Positions 18,530-60,600 of a stretch of DNA of 64,000 nt are shown in pieces. The DNA lies in NCBI RefSeq assembly GCF_036365525.1, contig NC_090408.1:35084269-35148268 (forward strand), given 5' to 3'. The first letter of the stretch is position 1; every line of letters starts with the position of its first letter. The translations under genes were made by a program, and so were the position numbers. The notes under the pieces are model-generated. The model did not search any database and was not told the DNA's origin. It worked only from the letters and a program-made list of their open reading frames with translations. Source of the DNA: Heterodontus francisci. Lineage: Eukaryota.

Positions 18530-18731
18530 CCATATCATCCAGAGCAGCGAGCAGATAAAGCTTGCCTCCAGCGTGCCTTACTTGAAGTGCAACAACCTCA
18601 ATTCCTTCCATGTTCCAAACAGATGTAACAGTTTGATCCTCCATGTTCAGAACTGCCACGCCTTCAGACAGACCAGCAAAGATATAATTTTCATCCACAG
18701 AATTTGCAAAACAGTTTAAATTGGCAGGAAG
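18530..18731 (-). CDS. WDR93: WDR93 coding exon 2
   Basis: Acceptor tttttgaacag and donor gtattt. Encodes LPANLNCFANSVDENYIFAGLSEGVAV...LLAALDDM(G). Overlaps ORF 18498..18698. Confidence 0.9.
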
Positions 18732-19594: not shown

Positions 19595-19846
19595 CTGAAT
19601 TTCCTCTGATGATTCACGAGAAGGTGGTTTTATCTTTAATTTTTCGGCCTCTCTTTCTGCTTCTCTTCCTTCAATGCTTTCCCAAGCACTGTCGAGGATG
19701 CGTCCAATTAATTTATCAATCATTCTGAAAGGCTGGGGCAACTCATCGAGCCTTTGATCCGGATCCTTCAGATAATAATCATCTTCATTCCAATTATGTT
19801 CGGAAGGAGTTGGAACTTCTTGATATTTCTTAATATAGCCTGGCAT
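19595..19846 (-). CDS. WDR93: WDR93 first coding exon (ATG at 19846; exon acceptor boundary at 19884)
   Basis: Encodes MPGYIKKYQEVPTPSE...DPDQRLDELPQPFRMIDKLI...SAWESI, containing the WDR93 N-terminal LPQP(Y/F)RMI.KL motif. Donor CAG|gtgtgc. Head-to-head with PEX11A as in other vertebrates. Confidence 0.92.
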
Positions 19847-21297: not shown

Positions 21298-21970
21298 TGT
21301 TACTACCAGGGGAGGACAGGGTCTAGGGGTCCCCTCTCAGCCTATTCCTGGTTTGCCCACCACAGGGTTTAATTTTTAAAAACACCATGTTTTTACCTTC
21401 CCCTCAGTGAATCCTTGCTCACTGCTCGCTAACTGTAATGGTCAAGAAATCAACAAGACAGGTTTTCTTAGATTTAAACTAGAAAGGTGTAAGTTTATTA
21501 GCCTTAAAACTCTAATTCAGTTAAACTACTAAAAATACGTGACGTGACCACGCTAGCATGCATGCTCAATAAACACACACGCAAATAGAGACAGAGGAGG
21601 AGAAAGAATTAAAGAGGAGAGGTTTGAAGTAATATGGAATTCAGTTACTCATTTTGGGATTTGATGTAAAGCCTTTGATTGTAGTTAAGTCTTGCAGTTC
21701 TTGTTGGGGCCCGGTGCACACTTTCACTTATTTAGCTGGTTTCAGAAGGCTGCATGAGTCTTCTCTCTTGAAGCTGGAGTTACTTCTGTGGGTCCCTGGA
21801 ACTTTACGCGAGGGAGAGGGGGTAAGATAGAGAGAGAGAGAGAGAGAGGGGTGCTCTCTTCTTCAATTTCAGTTGCAGTCTGTTCTCCAACTGTGTGGCA
21901 CAATTTTAAAAAACTCCAAGTTGGCCAGCAGGTTAGTCATGTGACTAGCTCATTTGAAACAACCTGCAAA
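21298..21970 (-). mobile_element. Partial solo LTR, same family as 45280-46238
   Basis: Starts TGTTACTACCAGG and shares blocks (gctagcatgcat, ggttagtcatgtgac) with the other LTR copies. Contains a (GA)n tract. Confidence 0.75.
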
Positions 21971-28349: not shown

Positions 28350-31300
28350 ACAAAGAACAACGAACAGTACAGCACAGGAACAGGCCACTCGGCCCTCCAA
28401 GCCTGCGCCGATCTTGATGCCTGTCTAAACTAAACCCTTCTGCACTTCCGGGGTCCGTATCCCTCTATTCCCATCCTATTCATGTATTTGTCAAGATGCC
28501 TCTTTAAACGTCGCTATTGTACCTGCTTCCACCACCACCCCCGGCAGCAAGTTCCAGGCACTCCCCACCCTCTGTGTAAAGAACTTGCCTCGCACATCCC
28601 CTCTAAACTTTGCCCCTCGCACCTTAAACCTATGTCCCCTAGTAACTGACTCTTCCACCCTGGGAAAAAGCTTCTGACTATCCACTCTGTCAATGCCACT
28701 CATAACTTTGTAAACCTCTATCATGTCGTCCCTTCACCTCTGTTGCTCCAGTGAAAACAATCCGAATTTATCCAACCCCTCCTCATAGCTAATACCCTCC
28801 AGACCAGGCAACATCCTGGTAAACCTCTTCTGTACCCTCTCCAAAGCCTCCACATCCTCTGGTAGTGTGGCGACCAGAATTGTACGCAATATTCCAAGTG
28901 TGGCCTAACTAAAGTTCTGTACAGCTACAGCATAACTTGCCAATTTTTATACTGTATGCCCCGACCGATGAAGGCAAGCATGTCATATGCCTTCTTGACT
29001 ACCTTATCCACCTGCGTTGCCACCTGCAATGATCTGTGGACCTGTATGCCCAGATCTCTCTGCCTGTCAATACACCTAAGGGTTCTGCCATTTACTGTAT
29101 ACTTCCCACCTGCATTACACCTTCCAACATGCATTACCTCACATTTGTCCGTATTAAACTCCATCTGCCATTTCTCCGCCCAAGTCTCCAACTGATCTAT
29201 CTGCTGCTGTATCCTCTGACAATCCTCATCATTATCCGCAACTCCACCAACCTTTGTGTCGTCTGCAAACTTACTAATCAGACCAGCTACATTTTCCTCC
29301 AAATCATTTATATATACTACAAACAGCAAAGGTCCCAGCACTGATCCCTGCGGAACGCCATTAGTCACAGCCCTCCATTCAGAAAAGCACCCTTCCACTG
29401 TCTTCTATGACCGAGCCAGTTCTGTATCCATCTTGCCAGCTCACCTCTGATCCCTTGTGACTTCACCTTTTTGTACCAGTCTGCCATGAGGGACCTTGTC
29501 AAAGGCTTCACTGAAGTCCATGTAGACAACCTCCACTGCCCTTCCTTCATCAATCATCTTCGTCACTTCCTCAAAAAACTCGATCAAGTTAGTGAGACAC
29601 GACCTCCACTTCACAAAACCATGCTGCCTCTCGCTAATAAATTCATTTGTTTCCAAGTGGGAGTAAATCCTGTCCCGAAGAATCCTCTCCAATGATTTCC
29701 CTACCACTGACGTAAGGCTGACCGGCCTGTAATTTCCTGGATTATCCTTGCTACCCTTCTTAAACAAAGGAACAACATTGGCTATTCTCTAGTCCTCTGG
29801 GACCTCACCTGTAGCCAATGAGGATACAAAGATTTCTGTCAAGGCCCCAGCAGTTTCCTCCATTGCCTCCCTCAGTATTCTGGGGTAGATCCCATCAGTA
29901 CCTCGCCCATTTCCTCTAGCTCCATGCATAGATTCCCTCCTCTGTCCTTGAGTGGGCCAACCCTTTCCCTGGCTACTCTCTTGCTCTTTATATATGTATA
30001 AAAAGCCTTGGGATGCTCCTTAATCCTGTTTGCCAATGACTTTTCATGACCCCTTTTAGCCCTCCTGACTCCTTGCTTAAGTTCCTTCCTACTTTCTTTA
30101 CATTACTTCATCTGTTCCTAGCCTTCTAGCCCTTACGAATGCTTCCTTTTTCTTTTCGACTAGGCTCACAATATCCCTCGTTATCCAAGGTTCCCGAAAC
30201 TTGCCAGACTTATCCTTCATCCTCACAGGAACATGCCGGTCCTGGATTCTAATCAACTGACATTTGAAAGACTCCCACATGTCAGATGTTGATTTACCCT
30301 CAAACAGCCGCCCCCAATCTAAATTCTTCAGTTCCTGCCTAATGTTATAATTAGCCTTCCCCCAATTTAACACCTTCACCCCGAGGACTACTCTTATCCT
30401 TATCCACAAGTACCTTAAAACTTATGGAATTATGGTCATTGTTCCCGAAATACTCCCCTACTGAAACTTCGACCACCTGGCCGGGCTCATTCCCCAATAC
30501 CAGGTCCAGTACGGCCCCTTCCCTAGTTGGACTATCTACATATTGTTTCAAGAAGCCCTCCTGGATGCTCCTTACAAATTCTGCTCCATCCAAGCCCCTA
30601 GCATTAAGTGAGTCCCAGTCAATATAGGGGAAGTTAAAATCACCCACCACAACAATGCTGTTGCTTTTCCATCTTTCCAAAATCTGTCTACATATCTGCT
30701 CCTCTACCTCCCGCTGGCTGTTGGGAGGCCTGTAGTAAATCCCCAACATTGTGACTGCACCCTTCCTATTCCTGAGCTCTACCCATATTGCCTCGCTGCA
30801 CGACCCCTCCGAGGTGTCCTCCTGCAGTACAGCTGTGATATTCTCCTTAACAAGTAATGCAACTCCCCCACCCCTTTTACATCCCCCTCTATCCCGCCTG
30901 AGGCATCTAAATCCCGGAACGTTCAGCTGCAAATCCTATCCTTTCCTCAACCAAGTCTCTGTAATAGCAACAACATCATCGTTCCAAGTTCTAATCCAAG
31001 CTCTAAGTTCATCTGCCTTACCTGTTATACTTCTCACATTGAAACAAATGCACTTCAGACCACCAGTTCCGCTGTGCTCAGCAACATCTCCCTGCCTGCT
31101 CTTCCTCTCCGTCTTACTGGCCTTATTCACTAGTTTCCCCCTCAGTTATTTCACCTGCTGACCTACTGCTCTGGTTCCCACCCCCCTTCCACACTAGTTT
31201 AAACCCTCCCGAGTGACACTAGCAAACCTCGCAGCCGGGATATTTGTGCCCCTCCAGTTTAGATGCAACCTGTCCTTCTTGTACAGGCCCCACCTATCTC

Positions 31301-34753: not shown

Positions 34754-35581
34754 TGTCATGCAGGTCCCCACCTGCCAAGAATGAAGCACACGTTATTTCC
34801 CCACATGAACATTAAAACTTAAAATTGCTACTGGGAAGAAAAGAGGCCCTATCATGAGGAATTGCCAGGCCCCTTGCAGGAAAGACCTTTTTTGCATGCT
34901 GGGAGATAATGTTGGAACAAAGGACCCAGTCCCTGCTTCTCCAATACACAAGACCTAGTCAGGCCAGTTTAGTCACATGACTAACTGGCTGTTTGAATTT
35001 GAACTTGCTACAGAGTATTTGAAAGGGAGAAAGCTGTTTGCTCCTGGACTGAAAAGATCTCTCTTCTGTCTGCTCCCATCTCATTCTCTCGGAACTGAAG
35101 ACCTATTGAAGACACATGAACCCCAAGAGAGTAAAGTCTCCTACAGTGAACAAGGTTTAAGAAGAATACTGGGCCCCAACGAAAAGCCAGACTACCTACA
35201 ATCAAGGACTACAGCCAGTTCAAAGCACAGTAAAAACTCCTCTTCAGAGATTGCCTCAAATCTTTTTACTTTATTTTTCTTCTCTTTTCTGTCTCCAATT
35301 TGCATGTGCGAATTGCGTACGCATGCTACCCTAGGACACGGCGTGTACCCATAGGTGTTAACTGAATTACAGTTTAAGTTTTTTTAATAAATTTCACTCT
35401 TTTAAACCCAAGAAAACCTGGTGTGCTCATTTCTTTGCCTTTATAATTGGAAAGCGGTTAACACTGATTCACCAAGGGGGAGCTCAAAACACAGTGTGTT
35501 TAAAAACATAAACCCTGTTACAGTAAGACCAGGTGAAGGCTAAAAGGGACCCCGAGACATCTTTCTCACCTGGTCGTAACA
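34754..35581 (+). mobile_element. Solo LTR (Gypsy-type) with 4-bp TSD GTAT
   Basis: TGTCATG...CGTAACA, flanked by gtat at 34750-53 and 35582-85. Internal AATAAA near 35386. Confidence 0.88.
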
Positions 35582-36981
35582 GTATGAAGGACTTCAACAA
35601 ATTGCTTGTGTACTCCAAAACAAAATTAGAGGATACATTAGTGGTAAGTGTCAGATGCCTTGAATGGTCATTTCAAGGGAGGCATGAAGGATTGCCAAGG
35701 GCTTTTTGAAGAAAGCCTTAAGCCTGGGCTAATAGCAGGAATAGGTGGGCAGAGGTGCAATGATAGGGAATTAAAAATATCTGAGGGAAGAATTTGAAAG
35801 GTTGAATGGCTTGATATTAGGGGAGGAGGGGCCAAGAGAATAAAATACTATATTTTCAACATTGCTTCTTATGCTATTCAATGTTCATTGATCCAACGTC
35901 ATACTGTGCATTATGATCATCAGTGTCTAATTTTCCCTATCTTACTGAAAAGTAAAATTATTTGTGAAGGGACTCCTTATGTGTTCATCTGAGAGAAATA
36001 AATTGCCTGAGCAGAGCTCCAACAGAGCCTGTGGGATCCAGTACAAACAGAGTTCAAGTGAAGTCTTATCAATATGTCAGCAACTGTTTGCACTGCACAA
36101 GTGCTAGGGAACTACATCTGTCTAGGTCTATGTTTATTTTGTTTTTGTTCTCTGCTGCATGTACAAGCTTTATCTAGTGATTAAAAAAAGAACTTATACT
36201 TAAAAATGCCTAATCATGTCCTTCATACTTTAGAAAAAATGGATTACTTGTGAAGTGCAGTCACTGTGGCAGAAATGTGCACCAGCAAGACCCCACAAAT
36301 AGCAAGTGAATGACTGACTAATCAGTGCACCTGAACAGGTGAAAAGGGCCTCAGTTTAAATCTCATCCAAAGGATGGCATCTTTGATAATGTAGCACTTT
36401 CTCATTACTGCACTTGAGTACTTACCCAGTTTATGTGCTCAAGTCTGCAATGAGGCTTGAACCCCCAACTTTTATGTTTCAGAGGCAGCAATGCTACCAA
36501 CTGAATCAAGTTGATCTGTTTTATGTGTATACCGAAAGGAATCCATAGCTTTTTCACTGGTGAGAAAATTCTATATTTAATTCTTATAATAAAAATATTG
36601 CTTGGAGGATTTGCAATGTGATGTAAAAATTACTATCAAATGTGAAAGATTATGATTGTGGACATAGAACAGTATTCATAAGGCAAGATTTTATTCCATG
36701 GATGCTGTTATTGATATGAGTTGTATGAACTGTGTTTCAGCCTGATCAACACTGACTAATTCTCTTTTTTTAAATTTAGATGTGGCTAGTACTATACGAT
36801 GAGGAGTAATAATGTATGGTTCCCAGGATAGAAGAGACTTAGCCTCTGAAAGCTCACCCAAAGAAAAATCCAGCCTATATTTAAATTGCTATTGCCTCAC
36901 TGAGAATCATTTCATCATGTTTCAAACATTGTCAACTGGTAAAGGTTAGCACTGTATTAAATCCCCTCTGCTTTATTTCAG

Positions 36982-37559
36982 TATTCCGGTTAGGTAACAC
37001 TGTGGATGCAGTTCAGACAGCCAGAAGGAATGTTCAGCTTTCGGACCCAGTGCTTCGGTTTTGTCTCACAGTCATTCCTCTCAGTCGGGCTCTGTACTTC
37101 ATCTGTGATAATATTCTCTGGATGGGAGCAGTGGGACTTAGTGATATCGACAAGGAGAAATGGAACAAGCGGTGCAACCGCTACTACTACTTCTCATTGA
37201 TTATTAGCCTGAGCAGAGATGTTTATGAGGTTGTCCAGCTCCTGAAAGAAGAAGCACAGGCCAAGAAGGGACAACAGTGCAAATCCATAAATGACCTGGA
37301 AAACAATCCTGTGCAGAGAGATTTTGTCTGGACATTGAGAGTCAAGACTGAAGCTTTATTTATGCTGCTTTTTCAAAACCTTAAAAGCAATCCTCCTGTA
37401 TTACTAGACATTGTTAAAAACCTCTGTGACCTTGCCCTTCCTTTAGACAAGCTAGGCATTTGCAAAACCAATCCTGGAGTGGTGGGTCTCTGTGGTCTTG
37501 TTTCCTCCATTCTCTCAATTCTAACTTTGACACACCCAGTACTGAAACTGAGACCTTGA
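36982..37559 (+). CDS. PEX11A: PEX11A exon 3 (to stop); spliced CDS 750 nt, 249 aa
   Basis: Acceptor ctttatttcag. Encodes (L)FRLGNTVDAVQ...PPVLLDIVKNLCDL..PLDKLGI...GLCGLVSS...HPVLKLRP*. The alpha paralogue is assigned from WDR93/PLIN1 synteny. Confidence 0.95.
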
Positions 37560-39269: not shown

Positions 39270-39600
39270 TTGCTTTTGGATGGCAGTTCATTATTCTGCC
39301 ATTCACATCTTTTTGTTTCTATACTTGTCCCATTAATACTCCCTTTGTCTTTGCCCCACCAACTCTTCTGTCATTTAATATCTTCCATCTTCTACCCTAT
39401 CTCAGACCTTCTGTTGTGTTCTTTTATTCACCCTCCCTCATCTGACCTACTTAAAACCTATCACATTTCTAACTTTTCCCAGCTCTGATGAAAGATCATT
39501 AACCTGAAATGTTAACTTTCTTTCTCTCTCCATGGATGCTGCCAGAACCGCTGAGTATTTTCTGTTTTTATTTCAGATTTCCAGCATCCGCAGTATTTTG
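39270..39600 (+). mobile_element. Penelope-like element terminal repeat with a minimal hammerhead motif
   Basis: CTGATGA (39485-91), stem, GAAA (39506-09), then tgttaact. Followed by the ...gatgctgccag...ctgagtattt...tttcagatttccagcatc block shared with the other copies. Confidence 0.7.
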
Positions 39601-40468
39601 CGGAGTATAATAGTACAATTACTATTATGCTTTTCTCCGAGGGGAGTAAATGTTACTTGCAGCCAGAACTTAGCTCTGCATTCGAGTCAGGATTCATTGA
39701 CTAGGATTCTCTATTGCTTTTAGAGTCTTGGTGCTACACAAATGCAGAAAAGTGTCATGCTACAACCTGTCTGCAACGTGATCCATTTGTAAAGAAATAA
39801 TATAATTTTGCAGTCAATTATAATATTTTAATTTTTGACCTCTTAATGAGTTGTATAAATTTCCTGGGCTTTCCTCACTGCTTTCTATGAAGAATGGTTA
39901 AATCTTTATGAAAATGCAACTATTTTCGAGTTGGACATTTTATTTTGGAGCTCTTTAAGAAGTGTTGCATCTGAGGTTAGAATTTTCAAACACCAATGCT
40001 TACTCAATAATCTTTGTTCACTGAAAAATAAGTCTATGCAAACAGATGTCAAATGTTTTAAACATTCGATTAAAGACATCAAAGGAAATGTTGTGACGGG
40101 AAGCTCCTAGCATGGAAGCTTGCTTGCAAAGAACATGGGCCGGAGGTCGATGGCATTAAAACACGGGTCTAATTCTGCAACCCATTTTCTCATCTAGTGA
40201 TACTGAACATTAAGATTTTTCCCTCCCAAATTTTCCTTGCAAAGCAGTATTTGAAAAATGAACTATTTCTGTATCCTAAATTAGGAAACTAATTTTCAAT
40301 GACTGTTGCAAACCGATGCTGCTGTACTCAAAGAAACTGACTAATTCCACTGTTATTTCATGTGTTCTAATAAATTAATATATTAATTACAAAGTTGTTT
40401 TATTTTGCATTTCTATTCAAATTCATTCAATCATATTGCAGTTAGATATTTTAAAACCCGCCAGCATT

Positions 40469-40860: not shown

Positions 40861-41631
40861 GGGCTGAATTTTACCGGCCTCTTGACGCTGTGGGGGCCGG
40901 TAAAATGCAGTGGGGAGAGGCCTGCGATGTCGCAAAGGGCCCACCGCATATTACTGGTGGTAGGGGGACCTCTGTGCTGCACCACCTCCCCCCCCCCCCC
41001 CCCCCAGCTGCCTGGTGGTGGGCCCTTCGTCTTCATATTCAAATTGACAATAGAGATGTAATTTAACTTAACCGCAGGCGGCGGCCGACCCACGCCAATT
41101 TTATGACCGCCGGTGGTACTGTGCACGCCTTCGGAACTTCATACGGAGTTCTGAGGCGAGAACTTGGTAGGAAGGAGGGGAGGATTAAAAATTTCGAGGG
41201 GTGGGGGGAGGTTAACAATCTTTACTGGCTAATGGGATAGTGGGAAGGGGCTGAGGGTCAAAGGAAACAATTTTTTTGGGGGGTTGGGGGATGTTTGGAA
41301 TACCATTAAAGGTTTATTATGGGGGAAGAGTGCGATTAATGTATAACCTACCCATTGGGAGGGGTGGGAGAAGTGATTTATTTAAAATGACATTTTATTG
41401 TTACATCCCAGAGATCGGGACCTTTAAATTTTAAAATGCTACTGTAGGGCTTAAAGCCCTTTAAAAATAGCAGCTGCGCCTGCGTGGTGGCGCCAGACGC
41501 TGTTACCGGGGATGCGGAGGCTACTCCGCCCCCTCTATTTAAATGAGCCACCGGGCGTAATATCGCACGGGATGCTCGCCGCTTTTCGAGTCCACCGCTG
41601 CGAACTGCGGAGCGCTCGTAAAATTCAGCCC
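40861..41631. mobile_element. GC-rich MITE (PIF/Harbinger-like termini)
   Basis: Perfect 14-bp TIR GGGCTGAATTTTAC / GTAAAATTCAGCCC. No coding capacity. Confidence 0.8.
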
Positions 41632-42004: not shown

Positions 42005-43613
42005 TCTTCTTTCTTCTTCTTCTTTTGGGCCTCCTTATCTCGAGAGACAATGGATACGCGCCTGGAGGTGGTCAGTGGTTTGTGAAGCAGCGCCTGGAGT
42101 GGCTATAAAGGCCAATTCTGGAGTGACAGGCTCTTCCACAGGTGCTGCAGAGAAATTTGTTTGTTGGGGCTGTTGCACAGTTGGCTCTCCCCTTGCGCCT
42201 CTGTCTTTTTTCCTGCCAACTACTAAGTCTCTTCGACTCGCCACAATTTAGCCCTGTCTTTATGGCTGCCCGCCAGCTCTGGCGAATGCTGGCAACTGAC
42301 TCCCACGACTTGTGATCAATGTCACACGATTTCATGTCGCGTTTGCAGACGTCTTTATAACGGAGACATGGACGGCCGGTGGGTCTGATACCAGTGGCGA
42401 GCTCGCTGTACAATGTGTCTTTGGGGATCCTGCCATCTTCCATGCGGCTCACATGGCCAAGCCATCTCAAGCGCCGCTGACTCAGTAGTGTGTATAAGCT
42501 GGGGATGTTGGCCGCTTCAAGGACTTCTGTGTTGGAGATATAGTCCTGCCACCTGATGCCAAGTATTCTCCGAAGGCAGCGAAGATGGAATGAATTGAGA
42601 CGTCGCTCTTGGCTGGCATACGTTGTCCAGGCCTCGCTGCCGTAGAGCAAGGTACTGAGGACACAGGCCTGATACACTCGGACTTTTGTGTTCCGTGTCA
42701 GTGCGCCATTTTCCCACACTCTCTTGGCCAGTCTGAACATAGCAGTGGAAGCCTTACCCATGCGCTTGTTGATTTCTGCATCTAGAGACAGGTTACTGGT
42801 GATAGTTGAGCCTAGGTAGGTGAACTCTTGAACCACTTCCAGAGCGTGGTCGCCAATATTGATGGATGGAGCATTTCTGACATCCTGCCCCATGATGTTC
42901 GTTTTCTTGAGGCTGATGGTTAGGCCAAATTCATTGCAGGCAGACGCAAACCTGTCGATGAGACTCTGCAGGCATTCTTCAGTGTGAGATGTTAAAGCAG
43001 CATCGTCAGCAAAGAGGAGTTCTCTGATGAGGACTTTCCGTACTTTGGACTTCGCTCTTAGACGGGCAAGGTTGAACAACCTGCCCCCTGATCTTGGAGC
43101 AGTACCCCAGGACATGCGCGATGCCAACATCATCACCCTCTATAAAAACAAAGGTGACCGCGGTGACTGCAACAACTACCGTGGAATCTCCCTGCTCAGC
43201 ATAGTGGGGAAAGTCTTTGCTCGAGTCGCTCTGAACAGGCTCCAGAAGCTGGCCGAGCGCGTCTACCCTGAGGCACAGTGTGGCTTTCGTGCAGAGAGAT
43301 CGACTATTGACATGCTGTTCTCCCTTCGTCAGATACAGGAGAAATGCCGTGAACAACAGATGCCCCTCTACATTGCTTTCATTGATCTCACCAAAGCCTT
43401 TGACCTCGTCAGCAGACGTGGTCTCTTCAGACTACTAGAAAAGATCGGATGTCCACCAAAGCTACTAAGTATCATCACCTCATTCCATGACAATATGAAA
43501 GGCACAATTCAACATGGTGGCTCCTCATCAGAGCCCTTTCCTATCCTGAGTGGTGTGAAACAGGGCTGTGTTCACGCACCCACACTTTTTGGGATTTTCT
43601 TCTCCCTGCTGCT
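42005..43613 (-). mobile_element. Young RTE-clade LINE, 5'-truncated with a 5' inversion
   Basis: The minus arm carries LLFADDAAL and a C-terminal CxxC..HxxxC, with a (GAA)n tail. The inverted plus arm (about 43096-43613) carries NYRGISLLS, QCGFR, FIDLTKAFD and GVKQGC. 10-bp TSD TAAGCACAGT at 41995-42004 and 43614-43623. Confidence 0.95.
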
Positions 43614-45279
43614 TAAGCACAGTAGGGTGCATGAATGAGGAAAAGCTTTGAGGACAGGGTATTCGGAGCTTAGCACAGCGATGAATATATGTGACAGTTG
43701 TATTAACTGTTGGAAAAATAGTGGACTTAACAAATATTTTTAATCACAAATTTTAATAGCACTGTTAGTTTTCTGAAGCTGAAGTTCTGTCCATTGATTG
43801 AAAATAAAATCATGTCATCTTCGAGCACTTTATCACATTTCTTGTTCACATATAATAAATTATCTTCAAGCCCAGTGCTTATGGAAACAAGCCTGGCAGA
43901 CATTCATTGTTAAGTGGACAGCTGTTTTAATTTGGGCTGCTTTATGATACTTTTCTCCTTTTTATTCTTGTTTATTGTAAAATCATCCTCAATATGCAAG
44001 CACATTAAATGAACTTTAAGCTGGGCCTTGTATGGAACATATTTAGCATAGTCTGCATCTGTGTGCAGTGTACCCTTTTATGCTTGAAGTATGCACAAGA
44101 AATAGTACAAAATTCCACCATGTGTTCCTGAACGCACAATGGAAATTAGCATAGTGACAGATCACTTGAAAACTGAATTAACTATAAGATCAGAACAAAA
44201 GGTGCAAATCAGATAAATCACCGAAGTACATGTTTCAAACCTATAAAAGCTCTAAATTCTTAGTGATTCTTGTGGATCCATCTGTCTTTGCTAAATTACA
44301 CGCGAGGCACTTCTCGTGGAGTCGTTCCTTGTTCCTGAGACTTGGCTGTACACTGAAGCAATCCTTAACAACTGTCACATTTCCAATCAGGTTGCCCTGC
44401 CTCTGGAGCTCAAAATCTCCTGTCAAAAACAAACATCAAAAATTAAAACAACAATACAATGACCAGGGATGGCTTGGAACCCATCTTAATTGACAGTAAG
44501 ACCAGTTTCTGCTTTAAATAGGATTTGCCAATTCAGAAGCAATATGCACCCAGCAGGGTTTTGAAAGACAAAGACTATTTTGATGATTCGTCTATGGGGA
44601 ACAGCAATAGAATCTCCCTCATTAATCAAGTTTCTCTGAAGCTGTAAATCCTCATTCAATAGGATGGTAAATAAGCTGCTAGTCAATTTTTGTTGCAAGT
44701 TGCCTCAATGTGTAATGATCTGAGTACTGTATACTGTCAGATTCTGGATCTAGGCTATGTCATGTACAGGTTATAACTCTGCTAATCCTAATGCTACACA
44801 CAGTAGACAGCTCTCATATTTGACCATCAGTCCTTGATCATGACAAACATATGACAACATAATTGGCAGATGAATATGTCAATTCAGGTCATAACAAGGA
44901 CTTTGAAGCTACATTTTGGCATTTAGTAGAGGACAGCCACATATGTTGAAAGAATATGTTGACAAGGATTATTTGTTTTGTCTTAAGAGAATAAACATTC
45001 ACAATACATAGTTTGTACTTTGGTGGTGAGGGCAATATACAGCGCTTCTGATCTCAGCTGTTCTACTTGGAGATGGGAAATAAAGGGGTTTTTACAGGTG
45101 CAAAGATGGCCAACATCTACCCACATGTGTATGAACTTACTGTGTGCAGCATAGCTGCTGTATTTTTTTATATTAATATCAGTCACTGTTTCAAACTATT
45201 ATCTCTGAAATGTCTTGACATACATGATCAGGTGCAAGTCCTTCTTTCAGTGATCAATGTGTAACGTCTTTAAAGACAT

Positions 45280-46238
45280 TGTTATGACCAGGTGAGGAAG
45301 GGGGCGCCCCTATCCTGGGTTGGCCGTAACGGGGCTTATCTTTTAAAATGCAGTGTTTTAAGCTTCCCCTCAGGAGTCCTTGCTCACTGCTCTCTAATTG
45401 TAATTGCAAAGGAGTCAATTAGACAGGCTTTCTCAGGTTTAAACAAGAAAGGTGTAAGTTTATTAACCCTAACATTCTAACTCAGTTAAAGTTACAAAAA
45501 ATAGGAGACAAAACCATGCTAGCATGCATATGCGATAAACACACACACAAATAGATACAAAGGAGGAGAAAGAATTAAGGGGGGGAATGTTTGGAGTAGT
45601 AAATGGAATTCAGTTACTAAATGGATGTAAAGACCTTGATTGGAGTTAGGTCTTGCAGTTCTTGTTGGGGCTCAGTGCATACTTTCAAACTTGTTTCGCT
45701 GGTACCAGAAGGCTGTAGGGGTCTTCTGTCTTGAGGCTTAAGTTGCTTCCCTGGGTCCCTGGAATTTTGCTAGAGAGAGGGAGAGAGCAGTGCTTTTTTC
45801 TTGAAGTTCAATTGCAGTCTGCCCCAAATCTTTCTGTGAGGCACAATTCCATCAATTCCCAGATTGGCCAGTAGGTTAGTCATGTGACCAGCTCTTTGTT
45901 TTAAACAGCATCACCTGCAAGGGTTGTTGATTCTCCAAAGCTTACTAGATACACTCGGTGTTTAGTGTAGGGGGGGTGGAGTGCTGGCTCTTACACAGAC
46001 AATGGCTCTCAATGTCTTTTGATCATCACTATTGATGAAACTCATTTCTCTAATTGAATCAGGGAGTGCTCTCATTGTCTCTCTATGCAACTGTCTCTCA
46101 GAATGCAAATATGCAGCCATGTTTCAGCTGTTCAGCTCTGTGGTCTTTTTAAACAGTTTAATGCCTAGTAAAAGTTCGAATAGTGTTCCATATGATGAAA
46201 TTAATATGTTTCAATTTGGCAGGTGTGGTTTTATCACA
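45280..46238 (-). mobile_element. Solo LTR (Gypsy-type) with 4-bp TSD ACAT
   Basis: TGTTATGACCAGG...TATCACA, flanked by acat at 45276-79 and 46239-42. Confidence 0.85.
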
Positions 46239-46969: not shown

Positions 46970-48048
46970 TTTTTCCTGTCCTCTCATTTTCCTGGTCATA
47001 TATTCAAATCTAATCCAGTGGGGAAAGAGAGGAAAAACTGCATGTGACAATTACCCATTGAATCTGACTGCACCTCAGTCTTGCTCGCTGGTGTAGAAAG
47101 CAAGTCGATGCCTTCTCTTTGGTGAATGAAAAGCAATCAGTTTTTACATGATAGCCTGGTCTCTGTCACCTAATTCTAGTGTCAGTTATAATATGACGAT
47201 AATAAAGGAGAATGCATTCCCGTCATAGGATTTTTCCATTATGCATGTTATTTGCTTTGTAATTCATTATTAATAAGTTCCGTAACCTTTTGAACCATGA
47301 AACAGTTACAAAGAGTGTTTTCGTTTAATTTCTGTCTGTTGACTCATATTTATATTTAAACAGTGATGTCAATGACCTCTTCGAATTATTTACTCAGAAT
47401 GTGAGGGAGTTCAACTCATGTCAGCAAAGATCTAATCATTAGTTCAGGATGCTTCAGTGATTGAGTTATTTGAACTGTATACAGTAACACAGATACCTCA
47501 TGCTATTGGGCGAGTACATACTAAAGCCATCATCCATTCTCAAAGTCTCTGATTGTGTAATAACCTTCATAGGACTTCCAGGCGTTAGTGAATTCTCATG
47601 ATTACATATTTTTAATACTTTCACTAAGCATAAATTACTTAGGTTGATTAATGACTCAAACTGTTTTCCATATTGAAATATTATTCCCAACATTTTGCTA
47701 AAACCAATCACAACTTCTTACGAACTTGCAGATGACAATGACCTGTTAGGTGTCTGCTGCTCTTGCAATTATCAGGATACCCATATGATTGAAATTGGAT
47801 GTGGATATCATGCTCCAATCTTGCTCTGAGCTGGAAATACTCAGCAGGTCTGGCAGCATCTGTGGAGAGAGAAACAGAGTTAATGCTTCAGGCCTGTGAT
47901 CTTTCATCTGCAGCATGTTGCTATTGTATTAGTAGCTCTGAGCAGGGTGGCAAGAATGTGCACAAGAAGGAGCCTGGAGATGATGATGCTGTCTCTGATT
48001 TTCCTTTATCCTTGGCTTTGCCTTCCACTTTTCCACACCATGGTAACT

Positions 48049-48942
48049 GGTACAAAAGCAAACCACCGTGGATACTGGAAATCTGAAATAGAACCAAAAA
48101 TGCTGGAAATACTCAGCAGGTCAAGCAGCATCTGTGGAGAGAGAAACAGAATTAACGGGCTGGATTTTCGAAGGTCAATGGGGTCGGGACCGGAAGCAGA
48201 TGGGCCCAGAATGTTGTGCTGCTGGTCAGTATGCCAGTTTGCTGGTAGCATCCTGCCCCGAGACATTTTCAAGAAGGCAAGGTTGGAGGTGGGTGGAACC
48301 AGTTGAGGAAGTTAAGGGGCCTATGAAGGCCCTCTCCCACGCCAACTGGAATTTTCCAGTCAGCAGGCTGAAACACGGCCAGTGAGAGGAAGTGACCTTC
48401 AGGCAGGAGATGGGGTTGGGGAGGCGGGGGCAGCAATTCATCCCTCTAGGGACAGCCCAACCCCCTCCCCTGCAACTGCCCTGGCCGTCTAGCAGCTATG
48501 GCCATTTTTAAATCAATTTTTTTTTACCTGGTCTTCAGAGGACACCTCCATTGTGAGGTGCCCTCTCTGTAGGCACCGGATATTCCCGCTTCAGGGAGTG
48601 GGGCTGCCAGTGTGTCACTGCTGAAGGGCCTCCTATTGGCCTTCCAGCTTCGGAAGCCTGTCCGCCATCCTTAATTGGATGGTGAATGCACTCTCTGGCC
48701 ATTAATTGACCAATTCTGCAAAAATTGTGTTGGGTGACTATTCCCAACATGGTGCGGGGGTTGATACCTGCATTTGATCCCACATCAGGGTCCTGCCCCA
48801 AACGGAGATGCCAGTCCAATGTTCAGTCTGTGACCTTTCATCAGAATTGGTGAAAGGGCACAGACCTGAAACGTTAACTCTGTTTCTCTCGCCACAGATG
48901 CTGCCAGACCTGCTGAGTATTTCCAGATTTTCTGTTTTTATT
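48049..48942. mobile_element. Palindromic Penelope-type terminal-repeat element with a nested MITE (48157-48817)
   Basis: Inverted arms ctggaaatactcagcagg...ctgtggagagagaaacag and ctgtttctctc...cctgctgagtatttccag. Flanking direct repeat CCATGGTAACT at 48038-48 and 48943-53. The MITE has GGGCTGG...CCAGTCC ends and an AAC/AAT 3-bp TSD. Confidence 0.8.
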
Positions 48943-49155
48943 CCATGGTAACTAACCTAGTCCGGAACTTGCCCAGGCACAACAGATGCAACCTGTTCCC
49001 TGCCCTCCAACTGCTTGTTGTACAGTGTCTTGTGATCCCAATATACTGCATAGATCACATCAGAGCTCAACCTTTCTACATAAAACCACAATAAACTATT
49101 GATCACACTTCTGGCAAACAGTTCATCCAACAAGAATAAGAGTTGCTGGGGCTGT

Positions 49156-51893: not shown

Positions 51894-52092
51894 GAGAGCT
51901 TCATAAAGAGGTTTAGCAGCCTACTGGCAGTGAGTTCCACTTATGACATCTTCTACAATGTTTATAAAAACACCAAGGACAAATATCCTGTAGTTGCATC
52001 AGTTTGGGAGGTTTCTGAAGGAGGAATAAAAAGAACAACAGCTCTAGTTCTGAAAAGCATGCAGCCAGTTCTTCGGAAACTTCAACCTCAAA
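51894..52092 (+). CDS. PLIN1: PLIN1 coding exon 2 (PAT domain)
   Basis: Acceptor catttatag and donor gtaaga. Encodes ESFIKRFSSLLAVSSTYD...TKDKYPVVASVWEVSEGG...SMQPVLRKLQPQ, a perilipin PAT domain. Confidence 0.9.
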
Positions 52093-52374
52093 GTAAGAAG
52101 ATATTAGATGTGGTGCTAACCTTGTGTTCAGTGTGTAACTCTCCCTAAACTGTACTGTCTTGCTTTTTATCTCAGTCTCCCACATTGCTGCTCAGCTTCA
52201 GAATGTTGTCAGCCTTTGAGTTCTTCAGACATAAATATTGGTGCATTTTCTGTTCTGTTGACTTAGACAGAACTGAACTATCTGCCTATGACGGGCATCA
52301 CTAGATGACAAGGCCAGTCAAACTGTGATTAAGTCCAGCAATAGCTAACTGAAATGAAACATTACTGAGACTTA

Positions 52375-53296
52375 TGTCAGGCACGCGCCCCGCCCCCCCC
52401 CCACCTCCCCCCCCCCCCGAACACCTGCCAAGAATGAGGAAAATCAATTTTTCCACATGAGCATTGATTTTAAACAGTTGTTGGTAAAGAAAGAACTTGC
52501 TTTAAAAAAACAATTGGAGACTTTGGCTGGAGAGAGACATTACCATATCAACAAACAGTACATAAAAAGACAAAGGAGCTATTCCCTGCTCCAATTTAAT
52601 CCACAATGGACTTTTGATTACCAGATGTTGAAGCATTCCAGGTTCACTACTAAGTAGGCCGACTACACCAACAGACATGGTCAGGCCAGTTTAGTCACAT
52701 GACTAACTGTTGGAGTTTTTTGAATTTGAACTTTCAACAACAAATTTGAAATCAGGAAAATCTCTTGGACTGGAAAAGACCTCTCTCCTGTCTACTCTCA
52801 TCTCGTTCTCACCAGCTCCAGAAACCATTGAAGACATATGAACCCCAAGAGAGAAATGTCTCCTACAGTGAACAAGGTTTAAGAAGAATACTGGGCCCCA
52901 ACAAAAAGCAAGAATTACCTAGAAAAGGACTACAGTGAGCTCAAAGAACAGTAAAAACCCCTCTTCAGAGATTGCCTCAAACCTCTCCATTTTATTTTTC
53001 TTCTCTTTTCTGTCCCTATTTGCATGTGTGTATTGCGTGTGTATGCTAGCGTGGGTGTGTCGTATATCCATAGGTGTTAACCATATTAGAGTTTAAGTTT
53101 AAGGTTTAATAAATTTCACTTCTCTTCTTTAAACCTACAAAAGCCTGTTTATGCTCATTTTTTTGCCTTATAATTGGAACGAGGATTCACCAAAGGGGAG
53201 TTCAAAACACACCATGTTTAAAATTAAACCCTGTTACAATAAGACCAGGTGAAGACAATAAAAGACCCTTAGATCCTTTCTCACCTGGTAGTAACA
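52375..53296 (+). mobile_element. Solo LTR (Gypsy-type) with 4-bp TSD CTTA
   Basis: TGTCAGG...GTAACA, flanked by ctta at 52371-74 and 53297-300. Strongly similar to 34754-35581. Confidence 0.88.
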
Positions 53297-55101
53297 CTTA
53301 CAAAAGCAAGAATGCAGTACCTGGTTGATTAATGACATGCCAGTCCTTTTTTTGAGTATTATTTTTCTTAGTCTAATAAGGTTATTTAGGGTCAGGATGT
53401 CTACATAATTTGGCTTCAGTGTGTTGTTTGTGCCCTATTAAAACAGTATAGTTTAAAGCTGGATCACCCACATTACATTAACTTATATTGGTGCTATTTT
53501 ATGAGGAAAATGTCTGTTTTAAATGAAATTTGCATTTACCATAATGTGCTCTTTAAGGATTGCATTTACTGTTTTTCAAAATCTTTCCAAATATTAAAGA
53601 ACAATTTTTTTCTTCATGAGATCAGAAACTCTTTATTTGGAATAAGATGCCTTTATTCTTTAAAAAAAAATGTTTTCTAAATATTACAAGGTTTCAGAAG
53701 AATACCAAATGTCAAATGAATAGGAGCTTCAAAATTATCAAGCGGTCAATCCCTTCCTCATCCCCAGATAGGAGAAACCTGAGAGAAAACTATCTGTCCA
53801 ATGTCACTTCTGGAGAGTGAGACCAATGCAGAAGTAGTCATTCGTACTGGGTTTTGATTGTTCCATCAGACTTTCCACCTTCCTATAATTTCTAGGCCTG
53901 CAATGGGTTTCATTGTTTTGAGGCAGGGAAAAATAATTTAATTTAGAATAGAACATACCGGGACTTGGCTTCAACCTAACTAGGATTTAGAGAATAAAGT
54001 GTCTGTACCATCATAGGAAAATGGCTAACAAACTCTGTGTAGGGAATTGTAGGTATTTGCTGCAACTCATTGGAACATAAACACACTGTTGTTCTGTCAA
54101 CATCTGTAATTGAATCAGTGCCCTTTTTTGTTCTTGATATATAGTGCCTTTCATGACCGCAGGATGTCCCAAAGTGCTTTACAGCCAATTAAGTACTTTT
54201 TTGAAGTGTAGTCACTGTTGTACTGCATTATGTGGGCAACACTGGCAAGGCTGGCCTTTATTGGTTGCCCTGTGGCTGTGGTGATGTTTCTTCTCCTTGA
54301 ACCTCTGTCGTCCTTCTGTGCAGGTGCTCCCACAATGTTATAGAGAGGTGTTGAGGTTTCTGGTACTGCAGCCACACTTCTCTAAAATAGAGCAGCACCT
54401 GAAAGTGCCAAATGCAACTTCAAAAGTCAAAGATTTTCTAAATGATTCCAACCTGTGCACCTTTTCTGATCAGTGCATAAACTTTGAAAGCTGTATCCAA
54501 GCCGAGTATACTGAAATCTAGTGGCAGGAAATCAGGAAAATGGTACTGAGGAAAATCATTGCCTACTTCGCTTGGCTCTGCAGCCCCTTTGGCTAGAAAG
54601 AGCACTACAGCTGCTGTGGTGTTCAATTGTGCATCCATCTCTCCTCCAAGTCAATAGTTCTTGCTGTACTGCTAAAAGGTTTTCTGTTTAATATTAATCC
54701 TGTGTAATGTTTTTATGTTTGTTGTTAATATTATGGGATCACACAAATGTTTATTCCTCCGTTGTTCATCTCGAGTTGCCTGTTGGGAGGGATTGGCAGC
54801 ATTGAAATATTTTAACATCTGAATGGAGGAAACCACACATCATTTAGTTTGAATCAAAGTAAGTATTCCATTCGAGAATGTAGAAAAGTAGCCCAAGAAG
54901 AAGTTCTCTTCCTGACAACCTTCCTAAAGATTAGTTCTTGGCTTTCAGCTTTTTCAACTTTAGATGAATTCAACTTTTATGTTACAAGGCCCATATGCTA
55001 TTGGTAAATTTACCAGTCTTACTTTCCTCCTTCCTTTTTAGAACCCTCACTTTCCCTTCTCCTCCATCACCTGAGATCAAAGTAGACAAATTCTTCAAAC
55101 T

Positions 55102-55258
55102 AAAATAAAATATTGCAGATGCTGGAAATCTGAAATAAAAACAAGAAATGCTGGAAATACTCAGCAGGTCTAGCACTGACCTGAAACATTAATTGCTTCT
55201 CTCTCCACAGATGCTGCCAGACCTGCTGAGTATTTCCAGTATTTCTTGTTTTTATATT
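55102..55258. mobile_element. Palindromic Penelope-type repeat, internally deleted
   Basis: Inverted arms, and a 14-bp flanking direct repeat AAATTCTTCAAACT at 55088-101 and 55259-272. Confidence 0.8.
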
Positions 55259-55396
55259 AAATTCTTCAAACTGTTTGTTTTTTTCCTTTGTGTTAATTAC
55301 TATTATAAAAACTCAGCTCCCTCATCCTGACTTGTTCAAGATAGAATTCCTCCATCAGCACATTTTAAAAGAAATATCATATATTTCTGAAAATTC

Positions 55397-56302
55397 TGTT
55401 ACGACCAGGTGAGCAATGTATCTAGGGCTGTCTTGCTATCTTCACCTGGTCTTATTATAACAGGGTTTAAGTTTAAACACACAGTGTTTTGAGCTCCCCC
55501 TTTGTGTGAACCCTTGTTCACTGTTTCCAATTATAAGGCAAAGAACTGAGCACAAGCAGGCTTTCTTTGGTTTAAAGCAGAAAGATGAAATTTATTAAAC
55601 CTTAAACTTAAGCTCTGATACAGTTCATGCTTACGGATATCGACGCGCTCATGCTAGCATGCACACGTGATATAAACATGCAAAATAGGGACAGAAAAGA
55701 ACAGAAGAAAAGATAAGTAGAACAGTTTGAGGCAATATCCTGTTACTGTTTCTCAAGCTCGCTGTAGTCCTTGTTTGAAGTTATAGTCTTATGTTTCGTT
55801 GGAGCCCAGTAATCTTCTTAAAACTTTGTTCACGTGGCAAACCTTTCTCTCTTTGAGTTTCACGTGTCTTCAATGGTTTCAGTTCCCTGAAAGATGAGCA
55901 GACAGGCAGGAGAGGAGATGTTCTCAGTCCCAGGAGGAGGTCTTTACTCATGAGCACCTGGCTTTGTCTCAGTTCAAATTCTATTGATGGGAGTTCAAAT
56001 TCAAAAAAGACTCCCTGGTTGCCCCGCAGGTTAGTTATGTGACTAGTTCCTTACATGGAACAGTCTTTTCAACATCCTTTGTTGGAGGTTCAAATCCAAA
56101 AGCTCCAGCCAGCTAGACATGTGACTAGAACCGGTTTGACCACTTCTGTGTATTGGAGAAGCCCCTGCTGGATCCCCATTGTTTCAACATTGTCTGTTAC
56201 CATGGAAATGTCTTTCCGGTCAGGGCTTGCAATTTTAGGTTTTAATGTTCATGTGGCAAAATAATGCATGCCTCAGTCTTGGCAGGTGGGGTTTGCCTGA
56301 CA
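55397..56302 (-). mobile_element. Solo LTR (Gypsy-type), inverted relative to 52375-53296
   Basis: TGTTACGACCAGG...GCCTGACA, the reverse complement of the family ends. The flanks attc and aaga do not match. Confidence 0.85.
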
Positions 56303-56496
56303 AAGAAGTACGTGATTTAATCATCCACAAAAACTTCCAAGTCCAAGTGTGTTGCTGTAAGTTGCAGAATGAGAGCTTACTATGCCAGTATTTGAGATGA
56401 GGCAGTAAGCATTACCCGGAATATATTTAGTGTTCTAAGAACTTTGGTATATTGCTGTTACACTCATGTGATGACCAGGAATATTATGGCTTACAG

Positions 56497-56579
56497 TTGC
56501 AGTTGCCAATGATTATGCTTGTAAAGGACTTGACCACCTTGAGGAGAAATTTCCTGTACTTCATGAGGACGCCACAAAA
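56497..56579 (+). CDS. PLIN1: PLIN1 coding exon 3
   Basis: Acceptor ttacag and donor gtgagt. 83 nt encoding (I)AVANDYACKGLDHLEEKFPVLHEDATK. GLDHLEEK matches PLIN1. Confidence 0.92.
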
Positions 56580-57388
56580 GTGAGTGTCTGGTTTTCGTTA
56601 TCACAGGTTTCGAAATAAAACGGTTGCTAAGGAGTTAAAGCTTTCCATTGTTGTACAATAGCTTTATTAAAGTTTAAGCCTTCCTTTTTTTTGTGCTCTT
56701 CGTTAGGATCACAGTACACTTGAAAGGCAGTGCATATGCTGACATTGAGAAGAGTTTGACTTCATACTCAATAGAGGAACATACACTTAGATCAAATGAA
56801 TCCATAATATAACCAAGTCAGTCAGAAGAAAGACTGCATCTTTTCTACACTTAAGAACATAGCCTGTTGCAAAAGGAAGATTGCAAGAATACAGAGACAT
56901 CAAAGGCATTGACCATTGGCGGGGGCAGGGGGTGCGGCATTGGAGAAGGTATTTGGCAAGCATTAATACAAGGGATCACATTTAGGATTAGGGAGAAAGG
57001 GTCCAAGGTAGAATAATAAACAAATAGCGGGAATACAGAATTGGCTTTTCAGCCTCTGTAAAGGATTTTGGGTTTAGCCCTTTTCTCCCCTTTCTCTCTA
57101 GACACTGGATTTCTTCGGCATTTTCTGCTAGTTTCAATCTCCAGCATTTGCGCTTTCTTTTTCTAGAACAGAGTGGGTTTGATTGAGCTTTTTCTTGTTC
57201 CAGTTTCCCTTGTGCTTTATTTGGATTTAGCTTGAGGTGAGGAGAGCAGAAGGGCTGTCAGGAGTTTAGAAACTTGTATTTTAAGTCGGGCTAGAGCCAG
57301 GTTCATTGAAATTGTTTTTCATTCATCCAATCAAGGCATTAACTTGGAATTACAAATGGTAATAACATCTGTATTGATGTCTTTGTAG

Positions 57389-57650
57389 ATTGCATCTGAT
57401 ATGAAAGAAATGGCAGTTACGAAAATGAAAAGCATACGAGACAAAGTCACCAGTCCCATCCTTCATGTTTCTGACAAAGCAATAAATGTGGTAACCTGCA
57501 GAATTGAGAAAACTAAAGTCTTAATTGATGAGAGTGTGACTTCTGTCCTAACTAGTGGAATTGGAAGATTAATAACTGATGGAGTAGATGCAGCTTTGCT
57601 GAGATCTGAGCAGTTGGTTGACTCTTATCTGCCAAATGAAGATGGAAATG
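57389..57650 (+). CDS. PLIN1: PLIN1 coding exon 4 (11-mer repeat region); later exons not identified in the window
   Basis: Acceptor ctttgtag and donor gtaaga. Encodes IASDMKEMAVTKMKSIRDKVTSPILHVSDKA...GRLITDGVDAALLRSEQLVDSYLP, cf. human IASELKD...PIASTSDK...GRLASGGADLAL..EKVVEYLLP. Confidence 0.9.
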
Positions 57651-60600
57651 GTAAGAATCTTCTATATTCAGCTTTTCACAAAAGAGACTAATTTGCTCAC
57701 CATTTCCTGATCTCAAGATTACATGAATAACTCGCACCTGGAAGCTAATTCCGTAGTGATATTCAAAAGGGAATCCGATAAATACTTGAAGAGAAAAAAA
57801 CTTACGGGGCTTTGGACAATGAGCAGGGAAGTGATATTAATTGGATAGCTCTACCAAAGAGATGGCACAGGCACGTTGGGCTGAATGGCCTCCTTCTGTT
57901 CTGTATCATTCTCTGATTCTGTGGACCTTGGCTGTTAGAAGGCTGACCAGAATGGCGGGAATTTTTTCTTTTTCTCCATGTCTACTGGAAACATGGAATT
58001 ATCTGTTCTATACGGAACACATGCAGGATGGCATCTTGGAAGTTGAGGAAATTTATGGGTATGAAGCAGTTGCTACCGTTTATCACTTCTAATCCTCAAT
58101 CCATGTGTTTCTCTGAAAGGTTATGTGCCATGTAATGTAAAAAAGAAAAGGAAATAACCTAAAATACTAAGATTTTTAAATTGGGTAGAGGACCAGAGGG
58201 ACCTTTGGTATTCATATACATGAGTCACTAAAGGTTGCAGCACAAGCAGATAAAGCTTTTATATTTTTAAAGTTTGTTTTTGGACTACCGGTGTAGGATA
58301 CAAAAGGAAGAAAGTCATGTTGAGCTTGTCCAAGACCAAACTTGGGCCAGTATTGGGCAACATATTATAGAAAGATTATTTTTAAAAATGGAAAATGTGC
58401 AGTGTAGATTCACGAGGGATGAATGTTTGCAGTTCGAGATGCTGGAGAATTGTTTTCAGTGGAGCTGAGGAGCTGAAAGGGAACTTGTTTGAGGTCTTGA
58501 GAATTTTAAGGATTACAATAAGGAAAATTGTGAACATTTCCACTGGTCAGCAATAAGGGTCAGATTTAAGATGAAATGTGCAAAGAATTAAGGGGCTGCT
58601 TGGAAAAATATTATTTTGTAAGAGTGCATTTAGAATGTAGCTGTTGTTGCAGAGGTCCATAAATTCTTTCTAAAAGCAAATTAGCTTCTTAACTGAAAGG
58701 AAATATTAATGGGTATGGGGTGGAAGCAGGAGAGGAATTGTATCAGGTGGGTGAGGGAGGGGATCACTAGTGTGTACTTGATGGGCTGAATGGCCTGTTT
58801 CTGTGGTGTAACATTCTATGATGCTCAATAGACACTATAAATGAGGTGGTTTGCTTTGTATGAAATCCCAGCATACTGCAACTTTTGCCTTGAAATGGTG
58901 ATATGCTTTGGGATCTGAAACTACCCAGAACTTACAAATATATTTTGGTTTTAGTAATCTTCACACTTCAAATGCACTTTTTTTTGCCCATATATTTAAC
59001 CATGTCGATAGTATACATTATCCCAATGGATGCTAAACTATAGTGCAGGTTGTTCATAACGGACCATCATTTGTAAAACAATTTAAATGTTGATATGTGT
59101 GTGTATATATAGATCTGTCCAAAGTATCCTAGAGATTGCATGTGGAATGTTATCCTTCAAAAGAGATAATGGAAAGGATTTGATGAAGGACAAAAATCAT
59201 CTTTTAGGTCTTAGGTCATCGAATCCATTTTTTTCTTCCATTTATTTTTTTTATTCATTCTTTTAAAAGGGAAAAATACTGATGTGGTTTTATCCAAAAT
59301 TGGAGTACATCTAACCACCAATTGAGTTAAGCTTGAGGAATAATGTTATAGACTGCCACTCATATGGTAAATATTGTCTCATTTTTTTTGAAGAGTTTAA
59401 AAGGAATTTGATGCTGCCTTAGGTTTTGATAGAGGCGGGAGGTGTTGAGGTAGAATAATGGTTGGGTCATGCTGAATAACATTGGTGTGATCTTTCCTCA
59501 TATGTTACATGTAGTTTTTCACATCAATCCATGCCTCTTGAACCTTATCCTCAAACCATGGGAGAAAAAAAAACAAATCCCTTGACCTTCCACTAGAGGG
59601 TTCTGTCTTCTAGGAATCACATCCTATCCGTACTGACTAATTGATTTTTTTTTGTTCATCTAAACACAAATGCCACAACTGATCTATCGCTATTGGCTCT
59701 TTCATTACATGTGGGCAAAATAAATATTCAGTATTCACAAATTTCCCTTTGCATATCTTGTCCTGTAGCATTTAAAGTATGCAGTTAGGATCTGGAACGC
59801 TTTGCCTGAGAGTGTGGTGGAGGCAGGTTTCACTCATGGCTTTCAAAAGGGAATGGCATAATGACCAGAACAGAGAAAAGTTGCAGGGCTATGGGGAAAG
59901 GACTTGAGAATGGGGCTAGCTAAAGTGCTCTTGCAGAGAGCTGGCATGGGCTGATTGGCCTCCTCCTTTGCTGTAACCATTCTATGTTTCTAGTATGCTA
60001 TAGTAAGTGTAGTATGTAAATTGAGTGCATTTCCAGTCAAAGACCCCCACTGGGCGATTTGCATTGGGACAACCGTGGCTCAAATGCGCTGACCACCTTT
60101 TTCAATCGTTTTCTTTTAATCAGAAAAAGTATAAACACCAGAAATCTCTGCACTGTGCAGAAATGCATGTCACTCACCACAGTTCAGCTTTACTCTGGAT
60201 ACTGCCGTGATGTGTCTCCTGTGCTTAGTGAGACAGATTCAGAATTGAGGCAGGGAGGTGGAGGCTCAACAGAATCTAAATCACTAGTACAATGCCACCT
60301 TTAGGACATTTTCGACATTGCTGAGACTGTTTGAGGTTGTAGGTTCAAGTCACATAGGATCAGGAGAAGACATTTCAGCCGCCTAGTCTGTTCCACCATT
60401 CAATTAGATCACGGCCGGTCTATATCTTAACCCCACCTGCCCACCTTGGTTCCACTACCCTTACCTAACAAACATCTAATTTTTGAAATTTTCAGTTGAC
60501 CCGCCCCCAGTCTCAACAGCTTTTTGGGGATCGGGGGAGAGAGTTCCAAATTTTCACTACCCTTTGTGTGAAGCCGTGCTTCCTGACATCAATCCTGAAT

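Follow-up and report, generated by a model that had tools for sequence, protein, structure and literature searches.

At positions 48049-48942 of the 64-kb window (by which we mean the whole stretch of DNA analysed) lies an 894-bp insertion, centred on 48821-48880 and carrying an exact 11-bp repeat at both of its borders. It is very probably an old mirror-image insertion, likely of the 5′-truncated 3′ end (pseudo-LTR, or pLTR, plus tail) of a hammerhead-bearing Penelope-like element (PLE), and is likely inert. The features of this insertion and the other copies of its family in the window are collected in Table 1.

Anatomy of the insertion

As a control for the 11-bp target-site duplication, matches of 11 bp or longer were found in 0.17% of 3000 random window pairs. 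When the 661-bp secondary insert is removed and the joined minus arm is aligned with the plus arm, the two head-to-head arms are identical at 84 of 96 columns. A sequence-only reading of this DNA had confined the feature to 48821-48880, which is too small an extent: the minus arm resumes at 48049-48156 on the far side of the 661-bp insert, and the unit is the whole of 48049-48942.

Table 1. Parts of the insertion at 48049-48942 and further family copies in the window
Feature	Position	Strand	Remarks
Target-site duplication, left	48038-48048		exact 11-bp repeat of 48943-48953
38-nt tail, minus arm only	48049-48086	-	plus arm 48847-48942 has no tail
Main arm, downstream of predicted cut (helix I 3′ strand onward)	48087-48156	-	blastn 86% to plus arm
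661-bp secondary insert	48157-48817		imperfect terminal inverted repeats; 3-bp duplication AAC/AAT
Main-arm hammerhead core stub	48818-48848	-	CUGAUGA intact at 48844-48838
Inversion centre	48845-48846		inside CAG-AA-CUG mini-palindrome of family sequence
Inverted-arm hammerhead motif	48847-48879	+	C3>U, A6>G, helix II 10.4 U>G
Remainder of inverted arm, tail-less end	48880-48942	+	from arm comparison
Target-site duplication, right	48943-48953		exact 11-bp repeat of 48038-48048
Second inverted insertion; centre and most of plus arm deleted	47832-47934		tail 47905-47934
Third inverted insertion; centre deleted	55102-55258		32-nt tail on minus arm; in perilipin intron
Direct (non-inverted) copy with tail	39330-39602	+	pyrimidine-rich upstream sequence; left boundary approximate; no clear duplication
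Old copy, core CCAAUGA; short inverted stub upstream	4205-4340	+	boundaries approximate
Old inverted pair, strongly decayed	7886-8040		nhmmer 7948-8038 (+), 7892-7942 (-); boundaries approximate
Old fragment of downstream part, no core	18056-18107	-	nhmmer E 0.005

The 661-bp insert is likely a non-autonomous DNA transposon. Its AAC/AAT duplication corresponds to the GUU triplet on the minus strand, and the minus arm is split exactly there. Reads from other copies of the family cross this site without the insert (joint 47870>48826; 10 reads with eight starts), and some of its sequence is also repetitive in the DNA reads. It is one of two MITE-like elements in the window, the other at 40861-41631, with similar inverted ends starting GGGCTG; the 3-bp duplication of the element at 48157-48817 would presumably suit PIF/Harbinger.

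Each arm retains only part of a hammerhead. In the minus core stub, helix II is one base short, GAAA lacks one A, and the 5′ strand of helix I reads AAUU. The plus-arm motif keeps GAAA-CG-UU-AACU intact; the letters upstream of it, given by the sequence-only reading as (A)GUU or similar, are in fact AGAA, leaving it without a helix I 5′ strand. Since the centre of the inversion is the AA of CAG-AA-CUG, only the minus arm ever had that strand. The palindrome at 48818-48881 is real, with a predicted fold of -30.2 kcal/mol (z = -6.5) that none of 200 shuffles equals in stability, and at the locus either strand folds as one long hairpin (z = -6.5 and -4.3). The back-to-back motifs noticed in it lie, however, on opposite strands, so a single transcript would hold one core only, locked within the long hairpin, and the pair cannot constitute a dimer. 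Judging from their sequence, the motifs at this locus are likely inert: neither strand carries both cores, neither core is whole, and RNA reading through the locus would form a hairpin.

The genomic setting bears on whether the pair could be, or once have been, a working device at this locus, either as a dimer or by cleaving perilipin or PEX11 transcripts. Pfam searches placed WDR93 exons on the minus strand (18501-18758 and 8070-8267), a PEX11 exon at 36885-37559 (+), and perilipin exons at 51894-52145, 56481-56582, and 57389-57691 (+). The DNA is thus vertebrate, and its repeats look like those of a cartilaginous fish. The gene order over 8070-62000 is thus WDR93 (-), PEX11 (+), perilipin (+), which we take to match the human PLIN1-PEX11A-WDR93 cluster. 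Because it sits between two plus-strand exons, that of PEX11 and the first one detected for perilipin, the insertion may be transcribed. Such a device is nonetheless extremely improbable given the opposite strands and hairpin, the C3>U and A6>G changes and missing helix I of the plus arm, the 661-bp interruption and shortened GAAA of the minus arm, and the differences between the arms at 12 of 96 columns, as in decay.

Copies in the window and motif searches

A profile built from eight window pieces gave 10 matches at seven loci, two of the matches lying outside the seeds. All seven copies listed by the sequence-only reading are present where it placed them. Duplications were found at three of the seven loci tested (11, 14, and 9 bp), and the other four show no clear target-site duplication. 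The insertion at 55102-55258 is flanked by 14 bp (55088-55101 and 55259-55272), a length reached by none of 3000 random pairs. That at 47832-47934 is flanked by 9 bp (47823-47831 and 47935-47943); this duplication is less secure, as 2.8% of random pairs share a match of that length. Here the tail is on the plus side and connects with the minus arm via a brief stretch of shared sequence, and the "CAGAUGA" read at 47875-47910 as a substituted core turns out to be the point where a deletion has fused it to the opposite arm's tail, with no substitution.

In two of the three inverted insertions, the tail-less arms stop at the same T-rich point. The direct copy at 39330-39602 has a core (39485-39517) with three of five helix II pairs and ACGU changed to AUGU, and its upstream sequence agrees with the loose ends of reads. 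Across copies, 5′ ends and inversion points differ and 3′ ends agree; no tandem direct units of the family occur among the window copies. A 19-nt match to the T-rich end of the family at 5426-5444 (-; E = 0.01) is perhaps an eighth, very short copy.

Other repeats are present as well. One further dispersed repeat occurs in both orientations (34766-35585, 52841-53279, 55393-56291, 21373-21535, and 45374-45500). A LINE reverse-transcriptase fragment at 42072-43638 consists of two opposite pieces (RVT_1 on the minus strand at 42072-43139 and on the plus strand at 42988-43635), an inverted 5′ truncation. Two LINE/SINE 3′ ends lie tail to tail at 2669-2836, forming a hairpin that is the source of sub-threshold Rfam microRNA matches.

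Descriptors of the minimal hammerhead with an exact core, both strict (helix II of 5 bp, helix I of 4 bp, palindromic CG, and GUU) and with relaxed helices, gave no matches in the 64-kb window. Nor did Rfam report any hammerhead family at E ≤ 10, either in the window or in 48700-49000, so that the check suggested with the sequence-only reading came back empty for the window; hairpin-driven microRNA matches and weak snoRNA matches, all below the gathering score, were rejected as chance. Allowing one core mismatch in the relaxed descriptor gave 13 matches, which include no family copy and compare with an expectation of 11.2 over 30 shuffles, and we regard these as noise. When single copies were folded, none of six motifs adopted a hammerhead fold or was more stable than its own shuffles. 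The segment GAAAC-N-UU-AAC, a pattern derived from the copies themselves, has seven matches in the window, one of which (at 965) is not a family copy, versus 0.42 expected; none of 100 shuffles reaches seven. The statement of the sequence-only reading that every copy is damaged stands, although the damage comprises indels, an insertion, and junctions in addition to the substitutions named there.

The family in DNA reads

We examined 11,989,820 raw DNA records of run X22, a capture library with the same species label. Of these, 54,947 (0.46%) were placed on 47780-48990 at 80% likeness, which supports a very abundant repeat family, in agreement with the abundance first proposed; read counts from a capture library give no copy number. 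Read depth is ∼18,000-20,000 within the arm but falls to 0-1 in the flanks.

Majority letters, taken from the read rows listed, are C at 48847 (330 of 515), A at 48850 (381 of 522), T at 48858 (14489 of 15114), G at 48855, which is position 10.1 (9831 of 14449), and T at 48862 (12904 of 17479); position 11.1 is absent among those rows. Rebuilt with these letters, the motif passes the strict descriptor, which has no match in 20 Mb of simulated sequence. It has a helix II of five pairs, with G-U or A-U at 10.1-11.1 after one unpaired base, CG in place of helix III, a GUU triplet, and a helix I of four pairs (AGUU/AACU); predicted pair probabilities in helix II are 0.98-0.99. By the definition of the PLE pLTR hammerhead in PMC4209133, the sequence supports a complete minimal type I hammerhead at the family level, as the sequence-only reading had held. 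Its consensus fits the window copies, but the reads favor G at 10.1, and the larger read class apparently has CCGAAGA. For two majority motifs, the lowest-energy fold (-23.6 kcal/mol) is more stable than the dimer hammerhead (-8.7 kcal/mol), in models that ignore core contacts.

Immediately upstream of the core, roughly 12,300 reads diverge from the locus into direct pLTR-like sequence. They include one class of 5202 ending in CUGA and another of 7098 whose consensus ends in CCGAA (agreement 0.71); from this one consensus line, the larger class appears to carry U4C. The copy at 4226 reads CCAAUGA, as expected from CpG decay of CCG. U4C occurs naturally in viroids, where it reduces hammerhead activity in vitro (PMC3088659).

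The middle of the palindrome is crossed by 515 (3.6%) of 14449 core-covering reads, with at least 161 read starts. In two other organisms, B and C, the repaired C is found there in 44 and 52 contigs, respectively; together these indicate that the centre recurs. Other inversion centres are present among the joints listed (15 of about 1000). No listed piece from organisms B and C bridges the flanks as an empty site would. The 3′ end of the family is marked by 6577 reads with low-agreement loose ends before 48054. In organisms B and C, the consensus of loose ends (446 and 761 contigs, respectively) gives AGUC/GACU with an agreement of only 0.45-0.47; these low-agreement, unphased consensus lines read as a sister form with A-U for G-C at 10.2-11.2, a two-sided change in helix II. 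The variation at 10.1 is one-sided, G or A opposite U.

Probable relationship to Penelope-like elements and proposed origin

PLE ends carry an adjacent inverted 5′-truncated copy and a one-sided tail of 30-40 bp (10.1101/2021.04.23.441226), with duplications of 8-10 bp and head-to-head palindromes that have been ascribed to self-priming (PMC3846280). Both features are present in the window: an inverted 5′-truncated copy at 48049-48942, 55102-55258, and 47832-47934, and one-sided tails of 38 and 32 nt, within the PLE range. Minimal hammerheads occur in metazoan PLE pLTRs, with thousands of dispersed copies per genome, opposite-strand pairs among them, and low activity even as dimers (PMC4209133); the link between hammerheads and Penelope has been reviewed (PMC6155905), and Penelope is listed for the whale shark (PMC8455134). 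On the basis of layout and motif, the family likely belongs to the PLEs and, by analogy, likely works like a PLE pLTR.

The majority motif agrees with the published minimal-hammerhead consensus (U-rich, CUGANGAH, G-helix II, GAAA, palindrome, UH; PMC4209133) in CUGANGA, the single unpaired base, helix II, GAAA, the palindromic 15.2-16.2 positions, and UH, as well as in its 4-bp helix I, U-rich upstream sequence, mostly dispersed truncated copies, and opposite-strand pairs. The variants G10.1-U11.1, A10.1-U11.1, and CG-U-U of this family are present among the rows of that source. The family differs in its 5-bp helix II and in a main form with G-U or A-U at 10.1-11.1, where G-C is commonest in PMC4209133, and in the apparent U4C read class, since no row compared from Fig. 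S3 of that paper has C4; the species rows compared from that figure include no cartilaginous fish.

The head-to-head inverted copy at the 5′ end, the 30- to 40-bp tail at one end, and the duplication of ∼8-14 bp are all shared with the inverted-pLTR insertions of EN-containing PLEs (Adineta Pen2a, PMC3846280; general scheme in 10.1101/2021.04.23.441226). In contrast to these, only ∼135 nt of the element's 3′ end is inserted here, and the arms enclose no ORF. In Anolis, Poseidon PAc likewise has its pLTR hammerhead slightly more than 100 nt upstream of the insertion end, and its tail is explained as falling between two reverse-transcription start sites (PMC11167929). The PAc ribozyme has been assayed and cuts only with protein, being dispensable for insertion in vitro (PMC11167929), whereas the present family is known from sequence alone.

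The claim of Penelope type holds for the insertion layout but finds no reverse-transcriptase (RT) or GIY-YIG ORF beside the window copies. Pfam was run on 150 element-sense frames out of 166 selected and on 111 frames of the plus strand, the minus strand in the rest of the window being covered for frames of 90 codons or more, and gave no GIY-YIG and no RT beside any copy; an ORF is not expected there, because truncated copies should lack one. A sub-threshold Cpta_toxin match and a ZZ match were dismissed as chance, and the RT at 42072-43635 and an endonuclease at 30351-30935, which we take to be LINE-like pieces, lie away from the copies. A 40-codon pLTR frame compared with longer proteins gave six candidates, none at E ≤ 0.01, which is weak evidence. 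DNA pattern scans of viral, metagenome, and prokaryote genome contigs returned no loci. A search of titles and abstract openings found no published description of the family; the supplements of 10.64898/2026.07.22.740005 may contain one.

That source describes PLEs together with non-LTR retrozymes derived from PLE pLTRs in one chondrichthyan, and so provides a precedent for regarding the family as a short palindromic derivative or a non-autonomous retrozyme, amplified as a unit in itself by PLE proteins acting in trans. The two share a type I hammerhead in pLTR-related, non-coding dispersed copies; only short pieces with no ORF were found in the window, and the palindrome centre recurs in reads and in contigs of two other organisms. 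Retrozymes, however, consist by definition of tandem units in which every hammerhead is intact, and the window contains none. Further, the ∼12,300 reads that run upstream in direct orientation far outnumber the 515 that run through the palindrome, and variable 5′ ends and inversion points with constant 3′ ends are as in a truncated longer element. We therefore consider a non-autonomous unit, as the sequence-only reading had it, to be unlikely, and the copies to resemble 5′-truncated pieces with a common 3′ end.

On the plus strand at 48872-48900, the predicted cut falls inside a branch-point-like UUAAC; next come a pyrimidine tract and CAG/AUG, and the series as a whole resembles a 3′ splice-site motif. 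The CAG/AUG at 48895-48900 may, by its sequence, be the pLTR intron end and ORF start; the frame from it stays open through the tail in the arm at 55102-55175. With this motif just downstream, no Rfam hammerhead match, and a larger read class that seems to be U4C, the hammerhead likeness might be incidental, with the conserved stretch serving the repeat as a 3′ splice site or another cis-acting signal and helix II being a chance hairpin. Such a coincidence is very unlikely: the strict motif is absent from 20 Mb of simulated sequence, all parts stand in the published order, and helix II is kept across subfamilies. Moreover, a splice site and a hammerhead can overlap, as in D. virilis Penelope, whose intron end maps to helix I (PMC4209133).

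For a PLE end, the insertion could have arisen as follows. A GIY-YIG endonuclease would nick the target, and target-primed reverse transcription of a PLE transcript would start at the tail end and halt just past the hammerhead core. The inverted copy would then come from folding of the new strand onto itself at the CAG-AA-CUG mini-palindrome or, alternatively, from a second priming event, either way giving an arm without tail and without the 5′ strand of helix I. Repair would duplicate 11 bp of the target, and the 661-bp DNA transposon would insert later. Since other inversion centres exist, fold-back at one site would not be the sole route. In the parent element, the motif may cleave transcripts of tandem pLTRs after GUU, either as a dimer or aided by an element protein, as is reported for other PLEs.

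We also put forward, tentatively and as a doubtful possibility, that the most amplified subfamily carries a U4C-crippled hammerhead with helices I and II still paired, and that recurrent insertions fold back at the mini-palindrome at the 5′ edge of the core; the motif would then be less a cutter than a structural element at which reverse transcription stalls and from which the inverted pLTR is seeded. If true, this would constitute a natural, genome-scale test of the need for PLE hammerhead catalysis in amplification.

As found, the locus is a fossil and an ordinary example of a described kind, and the results extend the 2014 PLE hammerhead result to another abundant vertebrate repeat family. 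With its very many copies, several subfamilies, and apparent U4C majority class, the family could inform the open role of PLE hammerheads; it raises the question of whether conservation in the most amplified subfamilies extends to catalytic positions or is confined to structural ones.
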